A stretch of DNA of 64,000 nucleotides from an uncultured delta proteobacterium (GTDB lineage: Bacteria; Myxococcota; Myxococcia; SLRQ01). A model generated the notes under the pieces. That model did not search any database. It saw only the letters and a program-made list of their open reading frames with translations, and had not been told where the DNA came from. The stretch spans positions 1,120,001-1,184,000 of the forward strand of contig CAVSGM010000001.1 in the NCBI GenBank assembly GCA_963727485.1, written 5' to 3'. This document shows, in pieces, positions 5,881 to 33,915 of this stretch. Both the position numbers and the translations under genes were made by a program. Each line of letters starts with the position of its first letter. Within the stretch, counting starts at the first letter, position 1.

Positions 5881-6405
5881 CTACTTGCACAGGGTCGCAT
5901 CGCTCACGCCCGGCTTCACGTTCACCGGGGAGGTGCAGTCCACCTGGCCCCGGGTGCTGCCGTCGGCGATGGTCTGGGCGCAGATCGGGACCACCAGGGT
6001 CGGGTAGTCGTCGGCGTTGGACTGGATGATGATCGCCGCGTTGTCCGGGTTGGAGCGGACGGTCTGGTCACCGTAGGTGATCCGCAGGGCGGCCTCGGCC
6101 CCCGGTGCCACCTTGTTGATGTCCGGGCCCTCGAGGGTGAAGGCCTTGTTCTTGTCGTCCACCAAGCAGACCTTGGAGATCACCAGCTGCTCGGTGCCCT
6201 CGGACTGGAGGAGCAGGGTCCAGGCGTAGGGCGCGTACTTGTTGGAGCCGTAGTCCGGCTGCTGGCCCGAGGGCAGGGGGTAGAGGTCACCGAGGGAGAC
6301 CGGCGAGAGGTCCGGGCGGATGTGGACCCCGGCGTTCTTCGGCGGCGCCCCGCAGGCGGCGAGGCCGAGAGCGCCGGCCAGGGCGAGATAGCGAAGCTTT
6401 GTCAT
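5881..6405 (-). CDS. Lipoprotein with Ig-like (ASH/choice-of-anchor D-like) domain
   Basis: MTKLRYLALAGALGLAA-C lipobox; GGAGGGG RBS upstream; LQSEGTEQLVISKV...VAPGAEAALRITY...IIIQSNA pattern. Confidence 0.75.
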   Translation of the reverse strand: MTKLRYLALAGALGLAACGAPPKNAGVHIRPDLSPVSLGDLYPLPSGQQPDYGSNKYAPYAWTLLLQSEGTEQLVISKVCLVDDKNKAFTLEGPDINKVAPGAEAALRITYGDQTVRSNPDNAAIIIQSNADDYPTLVVPICAQTIADGSTRGQVDCTSPVNVKPGVSDATLCK

Positions 6406-6464
6406 GGGAACCCCCTCCACGGCGGCCTCCGGGGCGGGCCGCCTCCATGGCGCGCCAGCTGGCG

Positions 6465-7802
6465 TCACCGATCCTTGCTGTAGAGACCGTGCTTGTGCAG
6501 CAGGTCGTAGAAGTACTTCCGGTTGAGGTGGGCCTCCCGGGCGGCGGCGGCGATGCGGCCACCGGCGCGCTCGAGGAGGCGCTCGAGGTACTCGCGCTCG
6601 AAGGCGTCGACCAGCGACTCCTTGGCCTCCTTGAAGGGCCGGGTGAAGTCGACGTCGGGGAGCGGGCCCTCGTCGTCGTCGTCGCCCGGGCCCACCGGAC
6701 CCTGGAGGCTCACGGTCTCGGCCCCCTCGAGGCCCAGGAACCGCAGGCGGTCGAGGACGTTGCGCAGCTCCCGGACGTTCCCCGGCCAGCTGTGGGCGAG
6801 GAGCTGCTCCCGGAGCGCCGGGGCGAACCCCCGCCAGCCCTCGGCCTCGCCGAGCAGCCGGCTGGTGAGGACCTCGAGGTCCTCGGTGCGCGCCCGGAGG
6901 GGCGGCAGCTCCACCCGGACCACGCTCAAGCGGAAGAAGAGGTCCTCGCGGAACCGTCCCTCGCGGACCAGGCGCGACAGGTCCTGCTTGGTGGCGGCGA
7001 TGACCCGGAGGTCCAGGTGCTTGGAGCGGGTGGAGCCCAGGCGCCGCACCTCGCGCTCCTCGAGGACCCGGAGGAGCTTGGGCTGGAGCTCGAGGGGGAG
7101 GTCGTCGATCTCGTCGAGGAAGAGGGTGCCCCCGTCGGCCTGCTCCAGGGCCCCGGCCCGGGCGCTCACCGCCCCGGTGTAGGCGCCCTTCTCGGCGCCG
7201 AAGAGCTCGCCCTCGATGAGGGTGTGGCTCACCGAGCCGCAGTCGACCACCACGAAGGGGCCGCCGGCCCGGTGGCTGGCGGCGTGGATCGCCCGGGCGG
7301 TGGCCCCCTTGCCGGTGCCGGTCTCGCCGGTGAGCAGGAGGGTGGCCTCGGTGGGCGCCACCCGCTCCAGGACCGCGAACACCCGGCGCATGGCCTGGCT
7401 TCTGCCCACCAGATCGCCGAAGTGGTCCTCGGTGGAGGGCGGCACCTCGTCGGCCTGGTACACCGGCTGGAAGAGGAGCACCACGTTGCCCACCTGGAGC
7501 CGGGAGCCGGGGCGGAGGTAGGCCTCGCGCACCCGGGTGCCGTCGACGAAGGTGCCGTTGGTCGAGCCCAGGTCGCGGATGAGGTAGCCCTCGTGGCGCT
7601 TCTCCACCATGCAGTGGTTCCGGGAGACCGCGGCGTCGGGGAGGCAGAGCCCCGAGGCCGGATCCTTGCCGATGGAGAGCGCCGCGCCGTCCAGGCGCAC
7701 CCGTCGTCCCGACTCCGGCCCCTCGAGGACCACCAGGGTGACCTCGCGCCGGGTGACCGCGGCGTTGGCCGTCGGCAGGACGTCGGTGCGCTCGATGCTC
7801 AC
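6465..7802 (-). CDS. FHA-domain sigma54-dependent transcriptional activator (FHA-AAA+-Fis HTH)
   Basis: GTG at 7802 overlaps the upstream stop. FHA motifs IGK...VSRNH...DLGSTNGT; Walker A GETGTGK; GAYTGA loop; LFLDEI; FREDLFFRL; WPGNVRELRN; C-terminal HTH. Confidence 0.93.
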   Translation of the reverse strand: MSIERTDVLPTANAAVTRREVTLVVLEGPESGRRVRLDGAALSIGKDPASGLCLPDAAVSRNHCMVEKRHEGYLIRDLGSTNGTFVDGTRVREAYLRPGSRLQVGNVVLLFQPVYQADEVPPSTEDHFGDLVGRSQAMRRVFAVLERVAPTEATLLLTGETGTGKGATARAIHAASHRAGGPFVVVDCGSVSHTLIEGELFGAEKGAYTGAVSARAGALEQADGGTLFLDEIDDLPLELQPKLLRVLEEREVRRLGSTRSKHLDLRVIAATKQDLSRLVREGRFREDLFFRLSVVRVELPPLRARTEDLEVLTSRLLGEAEGWRGFAPALREQLLAHSWPGNVRELRNVLDRLRFLGLEGAETVSLQGPVGPGDDDDEGPLPDVDFTRPFKEAKESLVDAFEREYLERLLERAGGRIAAAAREAHLNRKYFYDLLHKHGLYSKDR

Positions 7803-8374
7803 TTCCCGACCCACAGCACCTCGTTGTTGCCCCCCGAGGAGACGTAGGCCTTGTAGGCCTGCCACCAGGCGTCGGTGGCCTTCTCCAGGGCAATGCGAGC
7901 CGTCTCCGCCGTCTCCTGGGCCTTCTTGAGCCGGGCCCGGGCCGAGTCGGTGGACTTGTGGATGGGCTTGAGGTCGTAGACCGCCAGGTCGTAGCGCATG
8001 GCGGTCTGGGCGTTGGCCTGGACCCGCTTGGCCCGGGCGAGGTCGAGGTTCGCCCGGGCGGCGTCGAGCTCGAGCTCGCGGTAGCGCACCCGGTCCTCGG
8101 TGGCGGTCTTCAGCTTGGCCGCGGCGTCGGCGGCCTTGGCGCCGCTCGGCCACTTGGTGGTGGCCATGAGGTGGTCGCGCCAGGTCCGCGCCGAGTCGAG
8201 GTCCGATTGGGCCTCGTCGCGCCAGGCCCGGGCGATGGCGACCGCGTCCTCGGCGTCGGCGACCCAGCGCCGGGCCTTGGGGGGCAGGCGGGTGTCGTGG
8301 ATGGAGAGGGTCGCCACCGTCTGGGCGCAGCCCCCGAGGAGGAGCACCGTGGCGAGGAGGGGAAGCCGTCTCAT
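7799..8374 (-). CDS. Coiled-coil lipoprotein
   Basis: MRRLPLLATVLLLGG-C lipobox; Ala/Arg-rich helical heptads; 4-nt overlaps with both neighbours. Confidence 0.8.
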   Translation of the reverse strand: MRRLPLLATVLLLGGCAQTVATLSIHDTRLPPKARRWVADAEDAVAIARAWRDEAQSDLDSARTWRDHLMATTKWPSGAKAADAAAKLKTATEDRVRYRELELDAARANLDLARAKRVQANAQTAMRYDLAVYDLKPIHKSTDSARARLKKAQETAETARIALEKATDAWWQAYKAYVSSGGNNEVLWVGK

Positions 8375-11300
8375 GCGTTGCCTCCCTTCTTGGCGCCGGC
8401 CTTCTGGGGCGGGCGCTCCTGGGCGTTCTGCTTCTGCGGCGTCGCCGGGGCGGCCATGGAGCCGGCCCCCGAGAGCAGCCGGCCGCCGGCGCCGCCGGGC
8501 TTGAACTTCTTGAGCGCCGTGGTCGCGGCCTGGCCCAGGCCCAGCTGCTGGAGGCCGTAGGCGAGGTTCTTCCGGCCCGCCTCCAGGCCCCCGTCGGCGG
8601 CCTGGGCGAAGGCGTCGAGGGCGCCCTCGTAGTCGCCCGCCTGCCAGCTGGCCACCCCCAGGAGGTCCTGGTCGGTGGGGCCGCCGCCGCTGCTCGCGGC
8701 GTGGGCGAAGACCAGCCGCGCCGCGTGGGCGTCGCCGGCGTCGAGGAAGGCGGTGCCCAGCTTGCGCAGGCTGTCGAGGTCGTCGGGGTTCCGGGAGAGC
8801 TGGTTGCGCAGGTCTCCGAGGCCCTTGATGTCGGCCCCGGCCGCATGCCGCGGCTTGAGCTGGTCGAAGGCCACCGGGTCGTGGCTGGGGAGCTTGCCCG
8901 CCAGGCAGGCGCGCACCGCCGGGTTGAACTCGTGACCCGTCCACGCCTGGTTGGCGCAGGCCTCGAGGGCGTCCTTGGACTCGCTGCGGAGCTTGTCGAT
9001 GCGCTGCTGGAGGGCGCCGCGAACCTGCTTGGCCTGGTCGGCGGTGAGCCCCGGGGGCATCTTCATGTTGGCGAAGCGGTCGGCGCTGGTCTTGGCCATG
9101 TACGCCAGCCGCCCCAGGGCCGCGGCGGTGATGAGCGGGCTGCCCTGGCGCGCCGCCTTGAGGTAGCTCTCCTCGGTCACCTGGAGCAGGCCGATGAACT
9201 CCTGGATCGACTCGACGCTGGAGCCGAGCTGGTACTTCTCCAGGGCCGCGTTGTAGACCTCGGCGAGGCCGTAGTTGGCCCGGGCCTGGGCCCCGGTGGA
9301 GGTGCCCGCACCGGACTTCATCACCTGGTCGAAGGTGGCCTCGGCGGCGTCGGTGTTGCCCTGGCGGAGCTGGGCGAGGCCGAGGCGCGCCAGGACGTCC
9401 GGGCTCCCGTCGTCGGCGTAGGGCTGGAGGTGGCTGACGATGTCCGCCGGCCGCCCCTCGCGCTCGAGGAGCTCGGCGAGGTCGGCCTCGGGGGCGGACT
9501 TGGCCGGGCCCTGGGCCTGGGTGATGGCCGACTGGTAGGCCTTGCGGGCGTCGTTGTCGTCGGCGAGCTGCTCCTGGAGCTGACCGGCGGCCACCAGGAG
9601 GGTCACCCGCTCGGCGGGGTTGGCCTGGGCGGCCTTGTGGAAGAACTGGATCGCCCGGTCGAACTCGAAGCGCGCCGCGGCGGTCCGCGCCAGGGTGGAG
9701 AGGATGCCCGGGAGCTGGTCGCTCTTGGGGTACTTCTGGGCGATCTGGTCGCCGAGCTTGTAGAGGTCGGTGCTGTCACCCGAGGCCCGGGCGGCGACGA
9801 AGGCGTTGAGCAGGGCCCGCTGCCCCAGGTCGGTGCCGGCGTAGCGCTGGGCGAACTTCTCGAGCTGCTTGACCCCGCCGCCCTCCTCGCCGGCGGCCGA
9901 GAGCGAGAGCTCGTCGAGGCGGCGCTGCTCGGCGGCGAGGACGATGGGCTTGATCTTGGCCTTGAGGGTGTCGCCCGCGGGGCTGCCCCCGGCGAGGTAC
10001 CGCCGGCCGGCGTTGATGAGGCCCTCGTAGTCGTCGATGGTGTTGTAGGAGTCGAGGATGAGGTTGATGGCCGCGTCGGACTCCTGGCTGCCCGGGTACT
10101 CGTAGGCCACGGCGTTGAGGCGCTCGATGGCCTCCCGGTAGCGCCCCTCGTCGTAGTAGGTCTGGGCGATGGCGAACTTCACCCGCCTCGCCTTGTCCTT
10201 GCCCAGGCCGAGGCCGAGCAGCTCGGTGCCGGCCCGGCGCAGGGCCGCCCGGGCGACCACCCGGTCGACGTGGTTGGGCGAGACCTTGGCCAGGGCCTTC
10301 TGGAGCTGCACCACCGAGTCGTAGAGGTCGTCCTTCCGGTTGGCGGTCTCCTGCTTCTTCGTGTCGGCCTTCGCCTTCGCCTGCTTCTTCGCCGCCTTCT
10401 TCGGCGGCGGCAGCGGCTGCTGCGCCCGCTCCTTCAGCACGGTCGCGGCGGCGAGGTAGCGGCGCCCGGCGTCGAGGGGGTCCCCCGCCATCTTCAGCAT
10501 GTCGCCGAGGTTCTCCAGCATGTCGGCGCGGTGCCTGGTGTGGGGGAAGGCGTCGAGGTAGGCGCGGTCGGCCATCGCCACCTTGGCGGCGAAGCGGGCG
10601 CTCTTCTTGCGGAGGGCCACGGTCTGGGCCCGGGTCGCGAGGTCGCGGGTGTAGGCCTCGAACTCCTTGACCAGGGACGCCCGGCGCTGGTCGGTGGTCC
10701 CCGGCAGCTCGGACTCACGCCGGGCGGTGGTGGCGATGAGCGTCACGTCCTGGCCCACCTCGTGGTAGCTCTTGAGGCGCTTGAGGGCCGAGTAGAGCAT
10801 CCGGGCGTCGTCGAGGCGGTCGGTGCCGTCGGGCCCGAGGGTGAGCAGCTCCCGGCCCACGGCGATGGCCCCGATGGCCTGGTCCATGATCCCGTAGCGG
10901 GTGGCGAGCTTCTCCAGGGCGGCGACGTAGTCGACGCGGTTCGCCGCCAGGTGGTGGAGGTAGGCCACCGCGTGCTCGGGCTTCTTCTCCCGGCTGTAGC
11001 AGTAGGTGAGGTCGACCAGGGCCTCCCGGCGCACGTCGATGGAGCGGCCGGTGATGGTGGTGTCCTTGCGGTGGCGCTTGCCCTCGGAGGCCACGTGCTC
11101 CGCCCAGCCCTTGGAGGCGATGATCGCCTTCTCGAAGTCGGAGAGGGCGTTCTTGCAGTCGCCCTGGTTCACCTTCACCCAGGCCTGCTTGTAGAACGCC
11201 AGGCCGCTGATGCGGCTGGGCCCGCCGCCGATGATCTGCCCGTACCACTTGGCGGCGTCGTCGAGCTGGTTCTTGTCGAAGTGGTAGTCGCCGAGGGTGA

Positions 11301-11814
11301 GCAGGGCCTCGTTGGCCAGGGGGCTGGTGGGGTACTTGGCGACCATCTCCTCGAGGGTCGACTGCATCTTGTCGAACTCCCCGAGCTCGCGCTCCTCCTG
11401 GCCCACGTCGAGGAGGATCCGCGGCGCCAGGGACGTCTTGGGGTAGCGCCGGAGCACCATGTGGTAGGTGGAGATCGCCTCCTCCTTGAGGAGGCGCACC
11501 TGGGGCACGTGGAGCACCTTGCTGGAGCGCTGCTCCCGCTCGTAGGCGACCTGGTAGTGGTACTTCGCCTCCTCGGAGAGGAGCTCGGCGAGGCGCACGT
11601 AGAGCTCGGGGAGGTAGGGGGCGCCCTGGGAGCCGGCGATGGTCCGCCGGGTCTCGGAGATGGCGTGGCGCACCTTGGTGATGCGGATGCGCAGCTGCTC
11701 CACGTAGGGGGTGTCGTGGACCACCAGCTTGTGGTGGGCGCACCCGCCGGCGAGGGCGAGGAGGGCGGCGACGAGGCCGACGCGGCCCAGGGGCCCGAGG
11801 GTCAGTCGATGCAT
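8371..11814 (-). CDS. Large TPR-repeat lipoprotein, GltD(AgmU)/GltE-like
   Basis: Lipobox LAGG-C; many TPRs (YPTSPLANEALLTLGDYHFD, AFYKQAWVKVNQGD, REALVDLTYCY); position inside an agl/glt-like operon. Confidence 0.85.
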   Translation of the reverse strand: MHRLTLGPLGRVGLVAALLALAGGCAHHKLVVHDTPYVEQLRIRITKVRHAISETRRTIAGSQGAPYLPELYVRLAELLSEEAKYHYQVAYEREQRSSKVLHVPQVRLLKEEAISTYHMVLRRYPKTSLAPRILLDVGQEERELGEFDKMQSTLEEMVAKYPTSPLANEALLTLGDYHFDKNQLDDAAKWYGQIIGGGPSRISGLAFYKQAWVKVNQGDCKNALSDFEKAIIASKGWAEHVASEGKRHRKDTTITGRSIDVRREALVDLTYCYSREKKPEHAVAYLHHLAANRVDYVAALEKLATRYGIMDQAIGAIAVGRELLTLGPDGTDRLDDARMLYSALKRLKSYHEVGQDVTLIATTARRESELPGTTDQRRASLVKEFEAYTRDLATRAQTVALRKKSARFAAKVAMADRAYLDAFPHTRHRADMLENLGDMLKMAGDPLDAGRRYLAAATVLKERAQQPLPPPKKAAKKQAKAKADTKKQETANRKDDLYDSVVQLQKALAKVSPNHVDRVVARAALRRAGTELLGLGLGKDKARRVKFAIAQTYYDEGRYREAIERLNAVAYEYPGSQESDAAINLILDSYNTIDDYEGLINAGRRYLAGGSPAGDTLKAKIKPIVLAAEQRRLDELSLSAAGEEGGGVKQLEKFAQRYAGTDLGQRALLNAFVAARASGDSTDLYKLGDQIAQKYPKSDQLPGILSTLARTAAARFEFDRAIQFFHKAAQANPAERVTLLVAAGQLQEQLADDNDARKAYQSAITQAQGPAKSAPEADLAELLEREGRPADIVSHLQPYADDGSPDVLARLGLAQLRQGNTDAAEATFDQVMKSGAGTSTGAQARANYGLAEVYNAALEKYQLGSSVESIQEFIGLLQVTEESYLKAARQGSPLITAAALGRLAYMAKTSADRFANMKMPPGLTADQAKQVRGALQQRIDKLRSESKDALEACANQAWTGHEFNPAVRACLAGKLPSHDPVAFDQLKPRHAAGADIKGLGDLRNQLSRNPDDLDSLRKLGTAFLDAGDAHAARLVFAHAASSGGGPTDQDLLGVASWQAGDYEGALDAFAQAADGGLEAGRKNLAYGLQQLGLGQAATTALKKFKPGGAGGRLLSGAGSMAAPATPQKQNAQERPPQKAGAKKGGNA

Positions 11815-13280
11815 CGGTCCTCCGCGAAGACGACCAGGTCGTCGAGCTCGTCGGTCCAGAACTCACCGTCGAAGCGGTAGCCGACCTTCTTGCCGCCGAC
11901 CTGGATCTTCGGCGGCGGCGCCTCCGGGGGACCGCCGGGGCGCCGGCGCCCGCGGAGCAGGGCCACGGAGAGCTCGTGGAGGATGAGACGCACCCCCTCG
12001 TCGGCGGCCAGCAGGTCGTCGGCGAGGCCGTCGACCTCCCGGGAGAGGACCTCGTTCTCCCGGCGCTTCGCCTCGGCGATGCCCGCCTGGTAGACGTCCC
12101 GGAGGTGGAGGTAGAGGTCGGTGCCCAGCTTGCCGCGCAACCGCTTCACCGTCGCCGCCTCGCGCTCCAGGCGCTCCTTGTAGAGGGCGGCGGTGTGGGT
12201 CTGGCCCCGCTGCTCGGCGGCGGCGCGCAGGGCCCGGGAGTGGTCGAGGGGCACGCCGTCGTAGATGTCCTTGAGGGCGTCGCCGTGGCGCTCCCGGAGG
12301 CGGACCGCGGCGCGGCGGGCCGGGCCGAACTGGCACAGCCGCCGCAGGCACAGCGCCTCGAGGAGGAAGCGCTGGGGGGCGATGAGGTCGTGGTACTCCG
12401 GGGCGTCGAGGGCCAGGAGCAGGCCGAGCGCCCGGCGCGAGTCGCCCCGGTAGTAGTAGGTCCAGGCCATCTCCAGGAGCAGCTCGGGGTCGTTCGGCAC
12501 CAGCTTGCGGATCTTCCGGTAGTGGCCGAGCGCCTGGGCGTAGTCCTTCTGCTCGAAGAAGATCCGCGCCAGGCTCCGGTGGACCTTGGCGGCGAGGTCG
12601 GCGGGGAGGGTCTTGCCACCCCCGGCGAGGATGGCCTGGAAGGCCTTCACCGCGTCGTCGAGCTTGCGGGCCGCCACCAGGCGCACCGCCTGCACGTACC
12701 GGGCGCGCCAGTAGTAGCTGCTGGTCTTGGGGATCCGGGCGAAGCGCAGGTCGGCCCAGGCGTCGAGGCCCTCCCGGGCGCTGTCGAGGCCCTGCTCGTA
12801 GTCCACGAAGGGCTGGACGTCGGCGGGCAGGTCCGGGAGGTCGGCGGAGGCGATGAAGCCCCGGACCAGGGTGGCGTCGTCGTGGGGCCCGCCCATGACG
12901 ATGCGCATGATCCCGCGGACCGCCTCGGGCACCAGGGTGGGATCGCGGCGGGCCCGGGCGATGTCGAGGTAGCGGAGGCTGGCGGCGTAGGTCAGCCCCA
13001 GCTTCTCCTCGCTCTCGCCGATGAGGCGCTCGGCGCGGTCGTAGCGCGGGTCGTCGGTGGTGGCGCCCTTGAGGTAGTGGAACGCCGCGGCGGAGGCCAC
13101 CGCCGGGCTGCCCCCCTGGGTCGCCCGCACCGCCATGGCGTAGGCGTCGTCCCGGTCCTTGGGCACGTGGGTGGTGGCGCAGGACGCCAGCAGGCACGCC
13201 AGCGCCACCACGCCGGCCCGCCGCCCCCCCGGCCACCTGCGGGGATCAGAGCGAGAGGCCGAGGCCGATCCAGAGCTCAT
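11802..13280 (-). CDS. GltC-like TPR lipoprotein
   Basis: Lipobox LLAS-C; TPRs (IPKTSSYYWRARY, LLEMAWTYYYRGD..RALGLL); C-terminal F.GEFW.DEL....C motif typical of GltC-family proteins. Start uncertain. Confidence 0.82.
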   Translation of the reverse strand: MSSGSASASRSDPRRWPGGRRAGVVALACLLASCATTHVPKDRDDAYAMAVRATQGGSPAVASAAAFHYLKGATTDDPRYDRAERLIGESEEKLGLTYAASLRYLDIARARRDPTLVPEAVRGIMRIVMGGPHDDATLVRGFIASADLPDLPADVQPFVDYEQGLDSAREGLDAWADLRFARIPKTSSYYWRARYVQAVRLVAARKLDDAVKAFQAILAGGGKTLPADLAAKVHRSLARIFFEQKDYAQALGHYRKIRKLVPNDPELLLEMAWTYYYRGDSRRALGLLLALDAPEYHDLIAPQRFLLEALCLRRLCQFGPARRAAVRLRERHGDALKDIYDGVPLDHSRALRAAAEQRGQTHTAALYKERLEREAATVKRLRGKLGTDLYLHLRDVYQAGIAEAKRRENEVLSREVDGLADDLLAADEGVRLILHELSVALLRGRRRPGGPPEAPPPKIQVGGKKVGYRFDGEFWTDELDDLVVFAEDRCID

Positions 13281-13860
13281 TGTGGATGTCCGAGGTCGTG
13301 AAGAAGGCGAGGTCGCGCAGGTCGAGGCGGAAGGAGACGGTGTGGCTCATGTAGAACCGGAAGCCCATCCCCAGGTCCACCACCGGGCGGCCGGAGCGGG
13401 TGAGGGTGCCGTAGCCGCCGCCGGCGACGAAGAAGATCTCGCCGTGGATGACGTTCTCGTTGAGCAGGGCGCCCTTCCAGTAGATGGGCTTCCACATGAA
13501 GTTGCTGGTGGCGTACCAGATCACCCGCTCGAAGGGCGTGGGCTGGACGTCGAGGGCCAGCAGGTCCGCCTTCAGGTGGGTGTCCACCGGGAAGGAGTAG
13601 GAGCCCTGGATCATCTCCCAGGCGTAGAGGTCATCGAAGTGCAGGGTGTAGGAACCGCTGACCGTGATGCCCTTGGTGAACGCGTCGAGAGGAAGCACGC
13701 CCACGGCGACGTCGAACTCGTGGCGCTCGAAGTCCTGGCGGTTCTGCACCGCCACCGTGGACAGCGCCGTCCCCGACGGCGTGTCGGCCCGGGCGGGGGT
13801 GGCGAAGGCGAGGGTGGCGAGGGCGGCGATCACCGCGCTGGCGCCCGCATTTTTCAACAT
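13246..13860 (-). CDS. Outer-membrane beta-barrel protein, GltA/GltB/GltH-like
   Basis: GAGGAGG RBS before ATG 13860; signal peptide; AVQNR...RHEF...LPLDAF.KG motif; amphipathic strands ending GLGLSL. Confidence 0.85.
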   Translation of the reverse strand: MLKNAGASAVIAALATLAFATPARADTPSGTALSTVAVQNRQDFERHEFDVAVGVLPLDAFTKGITVSGSYTLHFDDLYAWEMIQGSYSFPVDTHLKADLLALDVQPTPFERVIWYATSNFMWKPIYWKGALLNENVIHGEIFFVAGGGYGTLTRSGRPVVDLGMGFRFYMSHTVSFRLDLRDLAFFTTSDIHNELWIGLGLSL

Positions 13861-13874
13861 CGTAGACGGCCTCC

Positions 13875-16769: not shown

Positions 16770-17252
16770 CGGTGCCCCTTCTTGTCGTGGTAGCCGGGTC
16801 CGAGGACCGGATCGACGATCAGGTGGAGGTAGCTCTGCTTCAGCTTGAGGAGCGGGGGGAGGCGCCGGGGCGCCCGGTTGAAGAGGTACACCGCGCCGTG
16901 AGGAGGCGGTCTGGCCCTGCACCAGGCGGGCGTCGAACTCCATGACCCGGGAGCGGCGCAGGGGGCTGCCGTTGCCGCCGGCGGCGGCCTTGCCGTCGGC
17001 GGCCGCCGGGGCCGGGGTGACGGAGGCGGTGGCCGGCGCGGCGGCCTTGGGGGGCGGCGCCTGCTTCTTCTCGACGCGGTGGCGGCGGTGACGCACGCGC
17101 CGGTGGCGCCGCCGGCGGCGACGGTGGCTGCCGCAGTCGGTGGCGCGGGCCCGCACGCCGGCCGGCGACCCGGCCCGGGCGGCCCGGGGGGCCACGAGCG
17201 CCAGCATCGCCGCGAGGGCGAGAGTGGGGGCGAGGGTGCGCATGGAGCTCAC
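16766..17252 (-). CDS. GltF/CglF-like small periplasmic protein (frameshift near 16900)
   Basis: Signal peptide and RVMEFDARLVQGQTAS, continuing after a one-base shift as GAVYLFNRAPRRLPPLLKLKQSYLHLIVDPVL...; TGA at 16766-16768 overlaps the kinase TTG. Confidence 0.75.
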
Positions 17253-19977: not shown

Positions 19978-19991
19978 GGGGGTCCCCCCGA

Positions 19992-21962: not shown

Positions 21963-22633
21963 GGAGACCCTCCGTCGCTCGGCTCGCAGGCGGCCTTCAC
22001 CGGTCCGGTGGCCGCGGCGCCCTCGCAGGCCGCCGGGGTCCCGCCGAACTCGGTGACCTGGCAGATGCCCTTCACGCAGGTCTGGCCGAAGGCGCACTTC
22101 ACGCCGAGGCAGTCGCGGGTGAGGCCGACGCTCACGTCGGCGGCGCCCTGGGTGGGAAACGAGACCCGGGCCTCGATGGTGGCCACCGGCGCCCCCTGCT
22201 TGAAGGCCTGGACCACCACCCACATGTCGCCGTGCCCATCCCTTAGATCAAAGGAGAGGGGCAGGTTGGCCGCCTGGCCGATCACGCAGCTGCCGGCGCC
22301 CGCGCCCCCGTCGGAGGTCCCGGCGTCGGCGGCGCCGCCACCTCCGGTGCCCCCGTCGACGCCGGCGCTGCCCCCGTCGACGCCGGCGGTGCCCCCGTCG
22401 GCGTCCGAGGGCGTGAACAAGTCCTGGGTGCCGTCGTAGACCGGGTTGCGATCGGCGTCGAGGAGCGTAACCCCGAGGGCGTCTACGTCGTCCGGCACAC
22501 GCACGTCCCCGCAGACGTGGAGGTGGACGCGCGGTCCATTCCCACATCCGGCGAGGAGCAGGGCGCAGACGACGAGCCCGCCGAGGGGCCGCGTTCGCGC
22601 GCGGCGGGGGTCACCCCGGTACCGGAAACGCAT
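21959..22633 (-). CDS. Lipoprotein with DGG low-complexity linker and Cys-rich C-terminus
   Basis: LLAG-C lipobox; [18 protein letters not shown]-terminal [17 protein letters not shown]; first gene of the leftward operon. Confidence 0.75.
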
Positions 22634-22784: not shown

Positions 22785-22801
22785 CCGGCACGGCCGTTGC
22801 A
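22785..22801 (+). promoter_or_regulatory. Sigma54 (-24/-12) promoter of the mts-like operon
   Basis: CCGGCACGGCCGTTGCA: GG(22787-8)-N10-GC(22799-800), near consensus TGGCACG-N4-TTGC; 57 nt upstream of ATG 22858. Confidence 0.75.
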
Positions 22802-22857: not shown

Positions 22858-24222
<1,365 letters not shown>

Positions 24223-24244
24223 GTGCGACCAGACCGTCGACGGG

Positions 24245-24279: not shown

Positions 24280-24309
24280 TCGCGTGCGACGGCAGAAAGA
24301 GGTGGTGTG

Positions 24310-26473: not shown

Positions 26474-28390
26474 CCGGGGCGAGGCTCCGCGTGGTGGCGC
26501 TGGCGCTCTTGGCCGTCGCCGCCTGCACCAAGGCCAACCTCGAGCGGTGGCCGCCCAACCGGGGGTTGACCCGGGACGACAAGCTCGAGGTGCAGGGGCG
26601 CCTGTGCACCCGCACCCCGGAGAGCCTGGTCTTCCCCCTGCGGGTGCTCTTCGTGGTCGACTGCTCCGAGTCGATGAAGGTCACCGACCCGCCGGACCCG
26701 GTCACCGGGGTCACCGGCCGCGAGCGGGCGGTGCGTCAGGTGTGGCAGAGCCTGCTCGCCCAGGGGAACCAGGGCGTCCGGGTGGGCATCATCCGCTTCA
26801 GCGCCCAGGCCCAGTCCCGGACCCCCGTGGACCTGAGCGGCAACGGGGTCGCGGACACCTACTTCACCGCCGACCCCAACCAGCTCGACGCCGCCACCAC
26901 CGCCCTCGGCCAGACCGACCGCACCACCAACTACATCAACGCGCTGTCCGAGAGCTTCTTCGAGCTGCGCACCGAGATGCTCCGGGCCGACCTGGCCTCG
27001 CTGCCGCTCTCCAAGTACGTGGTGATCTTCATCTCCGACGGCTTGCCGGACACCGACACCACCCAGGGCAACGACAACACCACCACCAACATCCTCTCGG
27101 CGGTCAAGCAGCTCAAGGATCTCGCCAAGCTCTTCCACGTGGGGAACTTCAGCTTCCACACCGCCTTCCTCTCCGCCGGCCAGAACACCGCGGCGAACCA
27201 GCCCGCCGAGGACCTGCTCCAGCAGATGGCCAAGGTCGGGGGCGGGACCTACCGCAGCTTCCCCAGCGGCGAGTCCCTGAACTTCCTCCACGTGGATCTC
27301 TCGGTCCTCCGGCGGATCTTCACCCTCAAGACCCTGGCGGTGCTCAACACCAACTCGGTGATGGACACCTCCCAGATCCCCACGCGGCCCATCCCCCGGA
27401 TCGACGATCCCGGGTGGGTCGACCTCGACCAGAACCACAAGATGGCCTGCGGCGAGCCGCTGGTGGACAGCGACGGGGACGGGCTCGCGGACATCGTCGA
27501 GGAGCGAATAGGCACCGACCCCTTCAACAAGGACACCGACGACGACGGGCTCTCCGACCGCATCGAGTACGACTTCCGCAAGTCGGGCCTCGATCCCCTC
27601 GATCCCAAGGACTCGGGGTGCTTCGTCCCGGACGTCTGCATCAACCGGCAGCCCGATGGGAGCTGCGACTGCAACCTCGACACCAACCACGACGGGGTCT
27701 GCAACTGCGTCAACGATCCCACCCACCCCTGCGTGGACAACGCCGGTCATGACTGCATCGACATGAACGACGACGGGTACTGCGACTGCCCGGACCGCAA
27801 CCACGACGGCAAGTGCGACTACCCCGACTCGGACGGCGACGGCCTCAACGACTGCGAGGAGATTCTACGCGGGCACCAGCCACAACGGCGCCGACTCCGA
27901 CGCCGACGGGCTCCCGGACCCCATGGAGGTGCGCTTCCGCACCGACCCCTCCAAGAACGACGTCCTCGACGACCTCGACTGGGACAAGGTCCCCAACGGC
28001 ACCGAGGTCCTCTCGGGGACCGACCCCCTCTGCGACGACTCGGCCTTCCGCTCCTTCGCCGCCTACCGCTACGACATCCAGAAGGAAGGGATGGAGGGCG
28101 ACAGCACCTGCTACGACTTCAACGTGGGCAACATCACCCTGGTGCCCACCCTGAACAACGGCTCCAAGGGCTACCCGGGCAACGGGTGGAACCGGATCCT
28201 GATCTACGCTGGTGAGGTCGCCTTCGACGACCCCAAGACCTTCGCCGCCTACCGCGTGGCCTGTGTCGAGGCGAGCTACGACGCCAACGGTGACTTCAAG
28301 AACCCGCCCTCGGGCAAGATGAGCCTGACCAATGACGACTTCGTGGACCTCCGCAAGTTCGACCCCGCGGTCGACTGCAAGAAGCCCTAG
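26470..28390 (+). CDS. VWA-domain lipoprotein with DxDGDG and Cys-rich repeats (MtsB-like); frameshift at ~27862
   Basis: GTG overlapping the upstream TGA; lipobox VAA-C; GRLCT...FPLRVLFVVDCSES MIDAS, TTNY, FISDG; continues into frame 27923..28390 (CYDFNVGNITLV...NRILIY). Confidence 0.85.
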
Positions 28391-28409
28391 GCGCGCGCGC
28401 CCCAGCGGC

Positions 28410-30461
28410 GTGGCCCTCCTGGCGGCGGGCCTGGCCCTGGTGCTGGTCGCCGCCTGTGGCCCGGGGAAGACCGGCTCCGGCGCCGACGGCGGGACCGACG
28501 GCGGCCCCACCTGCCAGTGGGACGACTCCAGCGGCCCCTCGAGCTCGGTTCCCCTGACCCTGGGCCAGGCGACCACCGGCTGGATCTGCCCGGTGCAGGA
28601 CGTCGACTGGTACAGCTTCGACACCGGCGCCAGCGACCACCTGGTGCGGGTGCAGCTCGCCATGGACGGCCCGCTCTCGCCGGTGCAGCCGACCTACACC
28701 ATCACCCAGAAGAAGGCCGATGGCACCACCGGGAAGGTCACCGCCACGCCCCCGGCCGCCGAGGTGGGCGGGGCCCTGGACATGGTCAGCTGCATGGCCC
28801 CGGGCAGCTACTACATCGACGTCCGGGACCAGAACGACGACGGCGAGGACTTCCGCCACCCCTACAGCCTCACGGTGACCAGCTCCCCCGACCCCGACCC
28901 CGCCGAGCCCAACGACGACGCCGCCAGCGCCACCGCGCTGACCAGCGGGACCCCGGCCACCGGCTACATCGCCTGCCGCGGGGACCAGGACTGGTACCGC
29001 ATCCAGGTCGGATCCGGCCAGCTCCTCCGGGTGCACCTGACCTCCGACAAGGCGAACTACCAGCCCACCGTCGCCATCGTCGATGCGGGCGGGTCTACGC
29101 TCCTCACCCTCACCAACCCTGCCGGGGCGGTGAAGGCCACCGACCTCACGCGCCTGGTCGCGGTGCCCTCCGCCGGCGCCTGGTACCTGGCGGTGCAGGA
29201 CGACGACGGGATGAACGCCGATCCCACCGTCGCCTACACCCTCACCGCCAGCACCCTCACCCAGAAGGACCCCAACGAGCCCAACGACAGCCCCTCCCAG
29301 GCCACGGCCCTCTCGCCGGTGTCCTGCGGGACGAGCTGGTCCAGCTGGCAGACCCTCAAGGGGACCTTTGCCACCATCGGCGACCAGGACTGGTTCCGCC
29401 TGCCCATCTCCGGCTGCAACAACGGGCTCCTCGAGGCCACGGTCACCATGGACACCTCGGGGATGAGCGCCCAGCAGCAGTGGGACCTCCAGTCGCAGGT
29501 CCAGGCGTCGGTGGCCCTCATCCGCCCCCACCTGGCCAGCGCCTGCTCCAAGGACACGGACTGCCAGGAGCTCCAGCAGCCCTGCCAGAGCGGCTGGGAC
29601 TGTGCCGGCTACTTCAACCAGTGCCAGCCCGACGGCCTCTGCGCCGGCTCGGGCACCTGCCTCGCCGAGAGCGTCTGCGGCGCCACCGAGGCGGCGAGGG
29701 AGTACTCGGTGCTCCCGGTGCCCAGCCCGGTGAACCAGTCGCCGCCCCCGGACACCAGCACCGTGTCGGCCCCGCTCTTCGGCGGCGGCTACGTCTACCT
29801 CCGGGTGAGCGACTTCCAGGCCAACGGGTCGGCGCCGGACACCTTCTACACGCTCAAGGTCCGGGTCCGGAAGGATCCCGACGGCCACGAGCCCTCGAAC
29901 GTGTACACCCCGACCATCCGCCCCAATGACCCCACCGGGCCCCAGAAGACGGCGGCGCTGAACAACATCGTCCCGGTCCACGACTGCGCCAACGGCGACT
30001 GCTGCGACGCGACCAAGTGGGTCACCGGCTCGCTGGGGTACGAGATGGACCAGGACTGGTACGCCTACCAGCACCCCTGCCCGGGCGCCGACTGCATGGT
30101 GAAGGTCCTCTACCAGCTCGACCCGGGGCCGGTGGACTTCCTCATCACCACCTGGGACGAGAGCGGCCAGTGGTTCGGCAACCTGGCCAACATCACCGAG
30201 AAGCCCAGCCAGAGTGCGATCTCCGGGTCCTACGGTGGGACCCAGGCGACGGACAAGTGCTACTACGCCTGGCAGGGCCACACCGGCTCGCCCTACTACT
30301 ACTTCGTCTCCGTTCGTGACTACGCCGACGTGCACGACTGGGACCCGGACCAGAAGTATCGCTTCTGCGTGGAGAAGGTGGCAGATGGCTGCAGCGACCC
30401 GTGCCAGCTCTACTCGAACGGCTGTGGGTGCAAGCTCTCCGATCCGGCTTGCAAGCATTAG
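28410..30461 (+). CDS. Cys-rich lipoprotein with PPC-like/EPND repeats (MtsF-like)
   Basis: Lipobox LVAA-C; repeated D..EPND...AT.L...G.I...D.DWY modules. Start uncertain (may be near 28390). Confidence 0.8.
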   Translation: MALLAAGLALVLVAACGPGKTGSGADGGTDGGPTCQWDDSSGPSSSVPLTLGQATTGWICPVQDVDWYSFDTGASDHLVRVQLAMDGPLSPVQPTYTITQKKADGTTGKVTATPPAAEVGGALDMVSCMAPGSYYIDVRDQNDDGEDFRHPYSLTVTSSPDPDPAEPNDDAASATALTSGTPATGYIACRGDQDWYRIQVGSGQLLRVHLTSDKANYQPTVAIVDAGGSTLLTLTNPAGAVKATDLTRLVAVPSAGAWYLAVQDDDGMNADPTVAYTLTASTLTQKDPNEPNDSPSQATALSPVSCGTSWSSWQTLKGTFATIGDQDWFRLPISGCNNGLLEATVTMDTSGMSAQQQWDLQSQVQASVALIRPHLASACSKDTDCQELQQPCQSGWDCAGYFNQCQPDGLCAGSGTCLAESVCGATEAAREYSVLPVPSPVNQSPPPDTSTVSAPLFGGGYVYLRVSDFQANGSAPDTFYTLKVRVRKDPDGHEPSNVYTPTIRPNDPTGPQKTAALNNIVPVHDCANGDCCDATKWVTGSLGYEMDQDWYAYQHPCPGADCMVKVLYQLDPGPVDFLITTWDESGQWFGNLANITEKPSQSAISGSYGGTQATDKCYYAWQGHTGSPYYYFVSVRDYADVHDWDPDQKYRFCVEKVADGCSDPCQLYSNGCGCKLSDPACKH

Positions 30462-31836
30462 CCTCTGTTTCGTCCTCGCCGCCTGCTCGGGGCAGAAGAA
30501 CCCGCCGCCGCTGGGAGGCGACGGGGGCACCCGCCACGACGGGGGCACGCCCACCAACCCCTGGACCACGAGCATCGTGGACACCGGCGGGGTGGGGCTG
30601 GGGCTCCAGGCGGCGGTGAGCAGCGGCGGCAAGGTGGCCGCGGCGTACTGGGTCACCCAGGGCGTCACCAGCGGGCAGTGTCCCTACACCCCGCCGGAGG
30701 ACAAGATCGTCTGGGACCTGAAGTACGCCACCCGGGGGTCGAACGGCGACTGGAAGGTGGAGACGGTGGGGACCCTCCCGGTGGTGGGCCAGCCCCGGGG
30801 CCTGTCGCTGGGCTTCGGCGCCGACGGGGTGCCCCGGCTGGCGGCGACCGGCGGGCCGGTGGAGCCGCCGGGGCCGGACGCCTACTGCGGGAGCAACGAC
30901 GCCGACCTCTACACCCGCACCGGCGCCGGGACCTGGTCCGACGAGACCGCGGCGGCCACCAGCACCGACGCGGTGGTGCCCCCGCCCGGAGACCCGAGCT
31001 ACGACGTGGGCCCGGTCGTCGGCGACTGGCCGGCGCTCGCCTTCGACAGCAAGGGCGAGCCCGCCATCGCCTACCGGGACGTCCACTTCGGCGGGATCCA
31101 GAGCATCGACAACAAGCGCTCGGACCTCGAGCTCGCCTGGAAGCGCGGCGGCGGCTGGACCGACCTCCCGGTGGACATGGGCCGGGGCGCCGGCCTGTTC
31201 ATGAGCCTGGCCTTCGACACCAGCGACCGGCCGGTCATCGGCTACCAGGTCCAGTACCAGACGGCGACCGGGCCCAAGGCCGGGGTCTTCGCCGCCCGCT
31301 CGGACGCCCAGGGCCAGAACTTCCAGACGGTGCAGCTCTCCACCGCCACCGAGGAGGCCGACCCCTCGGTGGCGGTGAGCCCCAGCGACGGCTCGGTGTG
31401 GGTCGCCTGGTACGACGCCGGAGACGGCTTCGCCCACCTGGGCCAGCTCACCGACCCCACCCAGTTCGCCGACGTGGCCAAGGGCTGGGCCCTCCAGCGC
31501 CTCGGCGACAAGCGCTACGACGAGGGCGAGCACCCGTCCCTGGCCTTCGCCCCCGACGGCCGGGTGGCGCTCGCCTGGTACCGCTGCACCCTGGCCACCG
31601 GCGGCATCGGGAACTGCAACACCAACGACGACGGCGTGGTCTTCGCCTGGAACGACGGCACCTCCTGGCACGAGGAGATGGTCGACGCCGGCGGTGACGG
31701 GAACTGCGGGATGAGCCCCTCGCTGGTGTTCACCCCCGACGGCCACGCGGTCATCGTCTACCAGTGCTCGGTGCGGACCGGGCCCTCCACCTTCGACCTC
31801 CAGGTCTTCGCCGCCGAGCGGGAGCCTCTGCCATGA
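30424..31836 (+). CDS. Beta-propeller-like lipoprotein
   Basis: Lipobox VLAA-C; repeats G..PSLAF..DG...IAY; start approximate. Confidence 0.75.
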   Translation: MGASSPIRLASISLCFVLAACSGQKNPPPLGGDGGTRHDGGTPTNPWTTSIVDTGGVGLGLQAAVSSGGKVAAAYWVTQGVTSGQCPYTPPEDKIVWDLKYATRGSNGDWKVETVGTLPVVGQPRGLSLGFGADGVPRLAATGGPVEPPGPDAYCGSNDADLYTRTGAGTWSDETAAATSTDAVVPPPGDPSYDVGPVVGDWPALAFDSKGEPAIAYRDVHFGGIQSIDNKRSDLELAWKRGGGWTDLPVDMGRGAGLFMSLAFDTSDRPVIGYQVQYQTATGPKAGVFAARSDAQGQNFQTVQLSTATEEADPSVAVSPSDGSVWVAWYDAGDGFAHLGQLTDPTQFADVAKGWALQRLGDKRYDEGEHPSLAFAPDGRVALAWYRCTLATGGIGNCNTNDDGVVFAWNDGTSWHEEMVDAGGDGNCGMSPSLVFTPDGHAVIVYQCSVRTGPSTFDLQVFAAEREPLP

Positions 31837-32279
31837 CCGCCCTCAAGCGCCTCGTCGTCCCCGCCCTCCTGGTCCTCGCCCTGGCCGGCTGCGGCCCCAG
31901 CGGCCCCATCCTCGAGGGGAGCCTGGGTCAGTACTACGACCTGGGCTTCCAGAAGACCGAGGCGGCGCTCTTCTCCAGCGAGCTGGCCATCGAGTACATC
32001 TCCAAGAGCAACGAGAAGATCGCCATCGTCACCGTGCGCACCACCGACGCCAACCTCGACGGGCCGGCGACGGTGGACCTGGCCAAGTACGGGGACGTGA
32101 CCGGGAGCTCGGCGGGGCAGGCGATGCCCGCCCTCGACACCGGCACCCTGATCCTCCGCAGCTACCAGCCCAAGGCCGGGGCCAAGGTGACCGGCGAGTT
32201 CAACGCCCAGCTCAAGGGCAGCCAGGGCGACGTGTCCCTCCACGGGACCTTCGACACCACGCTTCTCGACCAGCGCTGA
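31833..32279 (+). CDS. Small lipoprotein
   Basis: ATGA overlap; MTALKRLVVPALLVLALAG-C. Confidence 0.8.
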   Translation: MTALKRLVVPALLVLALAGCGPSGPILEGSLGQYYDLGFQKTEAALFSSELAIEYISKSNEKIAIVTVRTTDANLDGPATVDLAKYGDVTGSSAGQAMPALDTGTLILRSYQPKAGAKVTGEFNAQLKGSQGDVSLHGTFDTTLLDQR

Positions 32280-32313
32280 ACCGGCCGGGGCATCGGCTCT
32301 ATACTCGGGGTCG

Positions 32314-33915
32314 ATGTCGACCCCGGCCCCAGGCGCCGCCCGGATCGGGCGGTACCAGCTCCTCGAGCGCATCCCCGGTGGGGGGATGACGGAGGTCTGG
32401 CGCGCCCGGGTCGCGGGGGCCAGCGGTCCCGAGCGGCCCCTGGTGATCAAGCGCCTGCTGCGCTCCATGGCCGGGGACGCCCGGGCGGAGGCGCGCTTCA
32501 TCGAGGAGGTGAAGATCGCCCTGGCCCTGGCCCACGGGAACATCGTCAGCACCTTCGAGGCCGGCCGGGACGCCGACGGGCAGCCGTTCCTGGTCATGGA
32601 GTACGTCCCCGGGCACGCCCTGCGGACGCTCCTCGCCACCGGGCCCCTGGGGCCGGAGCTGGCCCTCTTCGTGGCCCGCGAGGTGGCCCGGGCCCTGCGC
32701 TACACCCACACCTTCGTGGACCCCCTCGAGGGCCCCACGCCCATCGCCCACCTCGACGTGAGCCCGGAGAACGTCCTCCTCTCCCACGCCGGGCAGGTGA
32801 AGCTCACCGACTTCGGGATCGCCCGGGCGGTGGGGTCCATCTCCGGCCACGACGGGCCCTACGGCAAGGCGCCCTACGCCGCCCCGGAGCTGGTGGAGGG
32901 CGACCCGGGGGGCCCTCCCGCCGACGTCTACGGGCTGGGCTGCGTCCTCTACGAGATGCTCACGGGCCGGCCGCCCCACGTGGGCGCCGACGACGCCGAG
33001 ACCCTGCGCCTCGCCCGGGGCGGGCCGCCGCCGGCGCCGTCGTCCATGGGGGTGCCGGTGGGGCCCTCGGTGGACGCCCTGGTGCTGACCATGGTCGCCC
33101 GGGAGAAGGCCGACCGGTACCGGGACGCCGGGGAGGTGGAGCGGGCCCTCTCGACCATCCTCGGCCGCAGCGAGCGGCCCCTCACCGAGACCGAGCTCGC
33201 CGAGGTGATGCGCGAGCGGGGCCTCGAGGCGCGGCGACAGGGGGGCGCGAGCAGCCGGCTCCGCGACCAGCTCTCGGCGGCGGGGCACGACCTCGCCGGC
33301 CACGAGACCACCGGGCAGCTCCTGGCCCTGGGGACCGTGCCCCTCGGCGGCGGGGACGGGGCGGCGGCCCCGGCGGGCGCGGCGGCGACCGGCGAGGCGG
33401 CGGTCCCGGCGGCGACGGGCGAGGCGCACCCGCCCCGGCGCCGGGGCCTGTGGCTGGGCCTGGGCGCGGTCCTGCTCCTCACCGGGGGCGGCGCGGCGAT
33501 CTGGGCGGCGACCGCCGGGCACAGGGCGCCGGACCCCGCCAAGGTGGCGACCCCGGAGCCCACCCCCACGCGGCCGGCGACGCATCCGACGCCCCGGCCC
33601 CCGGCCACGCCCCCGAAGGCCGTGGCGCCCGCGGCCCCCGCCAAGCGGCCCCCTCGGCGTCATGTCCGCCACCTCCGCCGGCACCGGGCCGTGCCCCGGG
33701 CCCCGGCGGTGCTCCAAATCAACGCCTACCCCTACGCCAACGTGCGCCTCGACGGACGCAAGTCTCTCGGGACCACGCCCCTGCGCGGGGTCGAGGTGCC
33801 CCCGGGGCGCCACGTCCTGGAGCTGACGAACCCCGAGCTGAAGCTCAGGCGCACGGTGCACCTCGACCTGAAGCCCGGGCAGCACCAGACCGTCGGCGTC
33901 CGCCTCGATCGCTGA
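32314..33915 (+). CDS. Membrane Ser/Thr protein kinase with C-terminal PEGA domain
   Basis: GRYQLL, GGGMTEVW, VIKRL, HLDVSPEN, DFG, YAAPE; TM helix; PEGA (PYANVRLDG...GTTPL....PPGRHVLEL.NP). Confidence 0.9.
   Translation: MSTPAPGAARIGRYQLLERIPGGGMTEVWRARVAGASGPERPLVIKRLLRSMAGDARAEARFIEEVKIALALAHGNIVSTFEAGRDADGQPFLVMEYVPGHALRTLLATGPLGPELALFVAREVARALRYTHTFVDPLEGPTPIAHLDVSPENVLLSHAGQVKLTDFGIARAVGSISGHDGPYGKAPYAAPELVEGDPGGPPADVYGLGCVLYEMLTGRPPHVGADDAETLRLARGGPPPAPSSMGVPVGPSVDALVLTMVAREKADRYRDAGEVERALSTILGRSERPLTETELAEVMRERGLEARRQGGASSRLRDQLSAAGHDLAGHETTGQLLALGTVPLGGGDGAAAPAGAAATGEAAVPAATGEAHPPRRRGLWLGLGAVLLLTGGGAAIWAATAGHRAPDPAKVATPEPTPTRPATHPTPRPPATPPKAVAPAAPAKRPPRRHVRHLRRHRAVPRAPAVLQINAYPYANVRLDGRKSLGTTPLRGVEVPPGRHVLELTNPELKLRRTVHLDLKPGQHQTVGVRLDR

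Follow-up and report, generated by a model that had tools for sequence, protein, structure and literature searches.

The 64,000-nucleotide stretch analysed here (the window; C1:1120001-1184000 of an uncultured myxococcotal assembly of 5.55 Mb, 73% GC and 93% completeness) carries two divergent gene runs that encode a Glt-type envelope machine, a motor and a set of Mts surface proteins. Tree placement, gene order and locus numbering identify this locus as orthologous to the G5 Glt paralogue of Myxococcus together with the mts cohesion genes next to it. We lean towards reading it as an adhesin-display machine, made of a G5 copy of the Agl-Glt apparatus with its own motor and the Mts proteins, whose adhesin operon would be sigma54-dependent and, in the family of the window genome, tuned by a kinase. 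This reading is favoured because the kinase and the activator appear as additions to a conserved core: judged by their distribution, the core consists of machine, adhesins and sigma54 promoter, to which the activator was added at class level and the active kinase at family level. The window genome (G000) belongs to a small family of five genomes (f1) in the same class as the family with the Myxococcus-type locus (f2); we gave the latter family the label Myxococcaceae by inference, partly from titled loci of the same type.

Identity of the locus

In a quick tree of 32 rows, the window GltD clustered with a 1089-residue GltD of the Myxococcaceae genome G024 (Shimodaira-Hasegawa-like approximate likelihood ratio test, SH-aLRT, 100) and stood apart from three other clades (G1, Nfs and G4), each of which held one further copy from G000. 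The clade names were assigned from chromosome position in G024, protein length and gene order. MXAN_1327, the first gene of the G5 cluster MXAN_1327-1331, also encodes 1089 residues, according to the available part of PMC3169522; the third gene past the divergent gap in G024 encodes MtsC, listed as MXAN_1334 in PMC12475490. Taken with the GltD clade and the MXAN numbering, the G024 gene order thus points to G5 plus mts. The window has the gltF, gltG, barrel, gltC and gltD set expected of G5, and the locus showed no gltE-like gene; the N-terminal FHA domain expected on GltG is absent, a kinase standing there as a family variant. The locus does not qualify as a canonical Agl-Glt system (the gltA-K set with an M1-type AglRQS): it is without gltE, H, I, J and K, and its motor falls outside the M1-like clade.

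MtsC scored 564 bits against NF047638 (cut-off 350). Against the MtsD family NF047639 (cut-off 800), the intact VWA gene reached 139 bits, the other two VWA genes having been scored as frameshift pieces. The presumed role in cell cohesion or S-motility is taken over with the mts name from NCBIfam and from what is accessible of PMC12475490. A preliminary description of this DNA had cautioned that linkage of mts and glt-like genes might already be known; indeed, by locus tag, the G5-mts neighbourhood is present in M. xanthus. In the openly readable literature, outside which the original mts paper (Youderian and Hartzell 2007) lies, we found no paper linking G5 with mts or describing a kinase-GltG fusion.

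Organization and sequence integrity

A 224-bp intergenic gap (22634-22857) separates the two runs. The minus-strand run comprises two lipoproteins, a VWA/TSP3 lipoprotein, TolQ (PF01618), two ExbD proteins (PF02472), a GltF-like protein, the kinase-GltG protein, a beta-barrel (TIGR04565), GltC-like and GltD-like TPR proteins, a lipoprotein, an FHA-sigma54 activator (PF00498 and PF00158) and another lipoprotein. The plus-strand run comprises MtsC, two MtsD-like VWA/TSP3 lipoproteins, a PPC-repeat protein, a propeller-like protein, a lipoprotein and a second kinase. A third Mts-type VWA gene thus sits inside the motor operon. Among the 13 minus-strand junctions, eight are overlaps of 4-13 bp, and the other five leave about 5-60 bp between genes (with an approximate GltC start). 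The divergent operons with mostly overlapping stops and starts of the preliminary description therefore stand, and every gene that it named is present. Its kinase and GltG are both present, but as parts of a single reading frame once assembly frameshifts are removed.

A codon-model path placed five frame breaks in window genes, near 14892, 15784, 16899, 24690 and 27863. At all five sites, the extra bases were absent from contigs of four public runs (85% likeness threshold; one or two contigs per site at a depth of 3.5-6.7, some of them near-identical to the window), and we take the breaks to be assembly errors. Because the frameshifts are absent from near-identical public contigs, kinase and GltG are read as one protein, predicted to consist of the kinase, a Pro-rich linker, a beta domain, one transmembrane (TM) helix and a periplasmic AgmX/PglI TonB-like C-terminus. 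In G003, kinase and GltG share one 1143-residue reading frame; in G002 and G004, the fusion is visible up to the contig ends.

Conservation of the machine with the Mts proteins

Among 121 genomes of the phylum, the barrel profile (which also picks up a two-barrel subtype) matched 72 and the Mts VWA profile 73. All 72 lay within the 73, so that 72 genomes have both proteins, 48 have neither and the two profiles agree in 120 of 121; the odd genome is an assembly of 1270 contigs. In 41 relatives, Mts VWA proteins occurred in 26 and a G5 GltD (E below 1e-50) in 25, and here the odd genome carries a G5 barrel at a contig end. By a hand count of the matches listed, barrel and VWA genes lay within 30 kb on one contig in at least 16 of 50 positive genomes outside this class. 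Where titled loci offered at least 2.5 kb upstream of the barrel (35/53), mts genes were there in 16, gltG in nine, both in four and neither in six.

The genes from mtsC through gltD form one run in G041, G042 and G043, and the series mtsC-motor-gltF-gltG-barrels-gltC-gltD does so in G102 and G065. Gene order is reshuffled among operons across lineages, and the gene set stays together. Such co-occurrence, with reshuffled yet linked runs, bears out the earlier proposal that the parts make up one conserved system; probably they work with the Mts proteins as one functional machine. Separately, four loci titled Rickettsiales or Enterobacteriaceae (L032, L042, L048 and L054) carry cluster genes, two of them with the motor; the titles may be wrong.

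The motor

In a careful tree of 52 rows, the window TolQ fell in an 11-row clade (support 100/99) whose rows all come from loci of this system and which stands beside the M1-like and M2-like clades; the motor is a separate clade of Agl type. Among 12 further loci, a more distant motor is present within 20 kb in five, and in two of these it directly follows mtsC. Asn occupies the column of the channel Asp (ExbD Asp25) in all six readable rows of the motor clade and in ten rows of a second subtype; two linked motors have Asp. The AglS-like partner retains Asp, and both TolQ Thr columns are retained in all readable rows, the Glu of TolQ helix 3 being replaced in the window subunit. M1-like and M2-like Myxococcaceae ExbD pairs have Asp in both members, a canonical feature from which the window pair departs. 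Contact between AglR and GltG and the recruitment of CglB are established for the gliding machine (PMC3169522, PMC9946355 and PMC11761067, from the parts available).

No M1-like AglRQS was present among the six TolQ homologues of G000, though G1-type and Nfs-type glt sets are present (the assembly is 93% complete). A TolQ set at C2:197-199 kb was considered as AglRQS and ruled out by the tree and by its TonB neighbour. A single-protein TolQ search (E 1e-45, 15/121) was not used as a count: it mixes two motor subtypes. Elsewhere in G000 (C1:71666-83865), a G4-clade GltD lies in one run with an M2-like motor (an Asn/Asp pair) and a GltG-like gene. This run adjoins mglB-like and recR genes, is seen in G000, G002 and G003, and unites two other M. 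xanthus orphan clusters.

The predicted sigma54 promoter before mtsC

The site CGGCAC-N5-TTGCA is one mismatch from consensus and lies 57 bp before the mtsC start. A single such match in 64 kb is within chance (shuffle mean 0.76); the position (genome rate about 0.0015 per 224-bp strand), strand and conservation of the site go beyond chance. G003, G044 and, with a perfect match, G041 likewise have a site before the first mts gene; that of G043 is weak, and none was found in G042, G045 or G046. For 25 genomes outside the class, picked from MtsC matches to spread over families, we scored 510-base stretches: 17 had a site with at most two mismatches (Markov-shuffle null mean 1.4, antisense 2) and seven had one with at most one (null 0.14, antisense 0). 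The 17 sites lay 78-138 bases from the end of the stretch, save one at 148. All 19 Myxococcaceae loci have GG-N10-GC with TTGCT at one position, five with two mismatches and 14 with three (a count given without a null). The genome encodes rpoN, and no sigma70-type site was found at 21500-25000. The near-perfect -24/-12 promoter of the preliminary description thus holds, with one mismatch and with conservation across the phylum, and it is very likely genuine. Youderian and Hartzell may already describe the promoter or the G5-mts neighbourhood.

Sites resembling GTGGGG-N4-CCCCAC lie about 113 and 90 bases upstream of the sigma54 site in nine of nine Myxococcaceae training genera, and a matrix for this tandem palindrome gave background fractions of 0.001 in G003 and 0.002 in G070. 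A motif of similar form occurs in the stretch that separates gltF from the first mts gene. GGTGTGG, noticed on inspection as a shared word, does not count as evidence for the window, where the matrix gave no good score.

The FHA-sigma54 activator

The activator has the Walker A and B motifs, the GAFTGA-type loop (GAYTGA in all four family members) and the helix-turn-helix (HTH) of a sigma54 enhancer-binding protein. It lies in the motor operon of G000, G002, G003 and G004 and near mts in nine of 12 Myxococcaceae stretches (in two it was not seen within 40 kb, and in one the contig was short). The activators of the two families form one clade (100/98) that excludes the top matches from G041-G045, and the best genome-wide match was the linked copy in 5/5 cases. 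Its place in the system, claimed earlier, is thus supported by orthology to the copy linked to mts in Myxococcaceae. Tree and neighbourhood together indicate that orthology combined with linkage is confined to two families: an activator is present in just three of 30 titled loci with enough room to show it (two are f1 loci, and the third copy is not orthologous) and in none of 12 further 20-kb loci. A gene beside the G044 locus was considered as an orthologue and ruled out by the tree. The linked activator is rather likely to drive the mtsC promoter.

Among solved structures, the FHA domain is closest to GarA/OdhI. Its motifs (G-K, S-R-N-H and S-T-N-G) retain S-R and S-T-N, with Lys for the conserved Arg; it is a candidate phospho-Thr-binding domain. 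The N-terminal tail I-E-R-T-D-V-L fits the pattern of DgcB, in which, as far as PMC6733907 was available, the tail, once phosphorylated, docks on the FHA domain of the same protein via two Arg and Ser/Thr residues. More widely, the conserved FHA Arg is absent in 28 of 31 FHA-type sigma54 activators and present in all 19 FHA domains scored from other proteins of G000.

The kinase-GltG fusion

The Lys of VAIK and the HRD, DFG and APE-type motifs of the window kinase are all intact, from which activity is predicted. The motifs are intact in 4/4 f1 genomes, whose kinases form one clade (SH-aLRT 98). The kinase tree splits intact from dead fusion kinases; its branches are long, so it does not resolve one origin from two. 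In the 14 closest longer GltG relatives, the N-terminus is a kinase fold in four, FHA in two and something else, partly TPR, in eight. Because kinase, FHA or other modules occupy it across lineages, the cytoplasmic end of GltG is a swappable socket. In the accessible text of PMC11761067, the model for M. xanthus gives the N-terminal FHA domain of GltG the role of docking GltI. An E-T-x-Q-[VM] motif follows the kinase in the window and 3/3 relatives and in one of 38 other scored kinases (the window's second kinase), the pattern having been chosen post hoc. A degenerate FHA domain is retained behind the kinase in G002 and G003.

The Mts surface proteins

A model of the VWA protein of the motor operon (predicted local distance difference test 91; 46 sequences) places the VWA domain within a beta-sandwich and also shows TSP3 repeats. 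Its fold matches were VWA domains generally, the pilus-tip adhesins PitA, Mfa5 and RrgA being among the top seven; whole-chain template-modelling scores were low (0.18-0.25). In this family, the metal-ion-dependent adhesion site (MIDAS) is degenerate in each of the five listed orthologues. D-x-S-x-S is intact across lineages in both plus-strand VWA families, in rows where the motif was shown. The gliding adhesin CglB depends on its MIDAS, and GltABCHK recruit it to the machine (PMC9946355, from the part available).

Proposed mechanism and alternatives

We propose that the TolQ-ExbD-ExbD motor would use ion motive force on the GltG helix, and that periplasmic GltG would grip GltD and GltC, which in turn would hold the barrel. 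Together with accessory lipoproteins, the barrel would hold or expose the Mts VWA lipoproteins, with the TSP3-repeat protein MtsC as a calcium-binding partner, in analogy to the Glt platform with CglB and CglD, and the linked FHA activator would drive the mtsC promoter. The family-specific step is the least certain: the GltG kinase would phosphorylate the N-terminal Thr tail of the activator, which would then dock on the activator's own FHA domain (the DgcB/GarA type) and switch it on, so that the state of the machine would feed back on adhesin supply. Phosphorylation of the activator by this kinase is a tentative suggestion, rather doubtful at present; such feedback is a plausible family-specific add-on.

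Several observations weigh against this scheme. The AglQ-like subunit has Asn at the channel Asp column, and Asp28Asn is reported to stop AglQ. The window-type motor clade accounts for none of 23 TolQ homologues in three Myxococcaceae genomes, and no motor was seen within 20 kb in seven of the 12 further loci. The tandem palindrome does not score in the window (background fraction 0.11). In the FHA domain, Lys replaces the phosphate-binding Arg; Thr tails are also found on unlinked FHA proteins, and the genome has dozens of kinases, which bears on specificity. The kinase-GltG fusions outside f1 are without the catalytic Asp in 12 of 13 cases, the intact kinase and the activator are one evolutionary event, and related genomes are not independent in any of the counts. 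For M. xanthus, an MXAN_1327 insertion had no motility phenotype, as far as the available text of PMC3169522 goes, and MtsC is described as involved in non-A motility in the accessible part of PMC12475490, which misfits a strict dependence of Mts on G5.

The preliminary description had proposed a circuit from kinase to FHA activator to adhesin transcription. In f1 it fares well in part: the sigma54 site is conserved, the activator is orthologous, and the kinase is intact and in the activator's operon in 4/4 genomes. As a general design it is not supported, with pseudokinases in 12/13 fusions outside f1, TPR or FHA modules elsewhere and no activator in 27/30 loci with room. Myxococcaceae keep promoter and activator, without a kinase fusion or linked motor.

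The best-surviving alternative, which we consider on the unlikely side, keeps the same adhesin machine and makes the kinase domain a docking or assembly module acting on the machine itself, by way of the Thr motif in its linker and of partners that bear FHA domains, the activator being switched by another kinase, such as that at 32314. Retention of the kinase fold without catalysis in most fusions fits this proposal, as do the Thr motif in the protein's own linker and the degenerate FHA domain behind the kinase in G002 and G003. PpkA-Fha1 of type VI secretion is a precedent, and the modelled docking of GltI on the GltG FHA domain (PMC11761067, in part) points the same way. What it leaves unexplained is the move of the activator into the operon of the one family with an intact kinase.

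The locus could instead be a dedicated sensor, as first described, in which motor and Glt parts detect surface or cell contact and the kinase, FHA activator and adhesin transcription are the output. The kinase is part of GltG, the only component for which contact with the motor is predicted, it shares an operon with the activator in every f1 genome, a motor subunit without the channel Asp could suit a low-work state, and CglD, a lipoprotein with VWA and thrombospondin-type parts, is described as mechanosensory in the available portion of bioRxiv 2023.10.19.562135. The output half, however, is not conserved with the machine: kinases are mostly dead, TPR or FHA modules replace them elsewhere, the activator is in only 3/30 loci with room (two in f1, the third non-orthologous), and the Asn subunit is also found in motors without any kinase. 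We therefore consider a dedicated sensor improbable, and gating of the kinase by force or contact similarly so.

A surface transporter of the Nfs type, which would move or lay down a surface layer with Mts as cargo or matrix and not as adhesins under load, is more doubtful still. Nfs is a Glt paralogue moving spore-coat polymer (PMC3858216, in part), the MIDAS is degenerate in one VWA family, MtsC carries a sorting tail of its own, and a GMC oxidoreductase pair often flanks the locus; yet no polysaccharide genes were seen in the mapped loci, and two VWA families keep D-x-S-x-S across lineages. That the motor is vestigial and the Glt parts a passive scaffold, as the Asn, the replaced helix-3 Glu and the many lineages with no linked motor might suggest, is highly improbable given the Asp of the partner ExbD, the Thr columns kept in all readable TolQ rows and an Asn/Asp pair conserved over several families.

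Returning to the adhesin-display machine, its most far-reaching form, which we regard as unlikely, would in f1 wire a proton-driven motor to transcription: Mts load or assembly state would pass through GltD to GltG, the kinase, the activator tail and sigma54 adhesin transcription. If true, this would be a bacterial counterpart of focal-adhesion-kinase signalling, and the dead kinases, TPR and FHA modules elsewhere would be remnants or replacements at the GltG socket. The kinase-GltG fusion offers a clean case for whether Agl-type motors signal to transcription. More generally, the mts genes are without an assigned machine in the openly readable literature, and G5, of unknown function in 2011, has its function left open in the part of PMC3169522 at hand; viewing both as one system makes them testable in M. 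xanthus. It also raises the question of which motor G5 borrows there and makes the tandem palindrome at -113/-90 a candidate enhancer. The regulatory layer and the kinase fusion are what this locus contributes.

Features of the locus and its surroundings

Table 1. Predicted features of the G5-mts locus, in window coordinates.
Feature	Position	Strand	Basis
Lipoprotein, predicted ASH/HYDIN Ig-like fold (lead only); accompanies motor operon	5881..6405	-	feature search; homologues in related loci
FHA-sigma54 activator: N-terminal Thr tail I-E-R-T-D-V-L, FHA with Lys for conserved Arg, AAA+ with GAYTGA, HTH	6465..7802	-	
Conserved lipoprotein without known family; always after gltD in this subtype	7799..8374	-	feature search: unnamed clusters only
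GltD-like TPR protein, G5 clade	8371..11814	-	domain search and tree
GltC-like TPR lipoprotein (start approximate)	11802..13217	-	NF033756 below cut-off
GltA/B-type outer-membrane beta-barrel	13246..13878	-	TIGR04565 above cut-off
Ser/Thr kinase fused to GltG; two assembly frameshifts near 15784 and 14892	13875..16769	-	
Conserved post-kinase D/E-E-T-x-Q-[VM] motif, candidate phospho-Thr site	15677..15694	-	
GltF-like protein; one assembly frameshift near 16899	16766..17243	-	
AglS-like ExbD with transmembrane Asp	17249..17797	-	
AglQ-like ExbD with Asn at ExbD Asp25 column	17794..18351	-	
AglR/TolQ-like motor subunit, G5/Mts-linked clade; both channel Thr columns retained	18374..19078	-	
Lipoprotein without known family	19075..19977	-	
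Mts-family VWA/TSP3 lipoprotein, degenerate MIDAS (D-Q-A-A-G); VWA inserted in beta-sandwich	19992..21962	-	
Lipoprotein at head of motor operon	21959..22633	-	
sigma54 -24/-12 site	22786..22801	+	
MtsC: TSP3-repeat protein, MYXO-CTERM-like tail	22858..24222	+	NF047638 above cut-off; TIGR03901 below
MtsD-like VWA/TSP3 lipoprotein, intact D-x-S-x-S; one assembly frameshift near 24690	24310..26473	+	
Second MtsD-like VWA/TSP3 lipoprotein, intact D-x-S-x-S; one assembly frameshift near 27863	26470..28390	+	
PPC-repeat Cys-rich lipoprotein (start approximate)	28332..30461	+	
Repeat lipoprotein, propeller-like by eye (start approximate)	30463..31836	+	
Small lipoprotein; homologue located among glt genes in other lineages	31833..32279	+	
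Second Ser/Thr kinase: H-L-D loop, TM helix, PEGA-like end; adjacent in G003 too	32314..33915	+	

Around the locus, a Kelch-repeat lipoprotein (4417-5880) converges on the motor operon and has the same position in G002, G003 and G004. The GMC oxidoreductase and its small Tat-like partner (33970-36260) have homologues flanking the mts/G5 locus in Myxococcaceae, G044, G065 and G082. Further away lie a large secreted protein that has repeated Ig-like units and a MYXO-CTERM tail scoring above cut-off (49-2946), and a multi-pass membrane protein (44380-46140), which we take to resemble an Mrp/Nuo antiporter subunit.

Comparison with known systems

The following comparisons draw on the accessible parts of the cited sources. 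The closest relative is G5 of M. xanthus (MXAN_1327-1331; PMC3169522), which shares the GltD clade (by way of the Myxococcaceae GltD of the same 1089-residue length as MXAN_1327), the gltF-gltG-barrel-gltC-gltD order, the absence of gltE and the divergent arrangement with mts; the window differs in having its own motor in the operon, a kinase in place of the GltG N-terminal FHA domain, the activator in the operon and other accessory lipoproteins. The M. xanthus mts locus (NF047638, NF047639) likewise has MtsC, three VWA/TSP3 lipoproteins, a PPC protein and a sigma54-type site directly before mtsC. In the window, by contrast, one VWA gene is in the motor operon, the VWA proteins fall below the MtsD cut-off (two of them scored as frameshift pieces), and no homologue of the first gene of the Myxococcaceae mts run was found.

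With the Agl-Glt machine and its adhesins CglB and CglD (PMC9946355, PMC11761067, bioRxiv 2023.10.19.562135), the locus has in common TolQ with two ExbD proteins, GltG with a TonB-like end, periplasmic TPR parts, a barrel, and VWA and thrombospondin-type adhesins. It differs in its single barrel, its Asn/Asp ExbD pair and the lack of gltE/H/I/J/K in the locus, a separate G1-type glt set being on contig C11. The Nfs spore-coat machine (PMC3858216) is also a Glt paralogue with a non-gliding job, but it belongs to a separate GltD clade, and the Nfs-clade copy of G000 is on contig C2. Finally, the activator resembles Bdellovibrio DgcB and the actinobacterial GarA/OdhI proteins (PMC6733907) in its N-terminal Thr tail 15-18 residues before the FHA domain, with hydrophobic residues at +2/+3; unlike them, it has Lys for the first phosphate-binding Arg and a sigma54 AAA+ domain as its predicted output.

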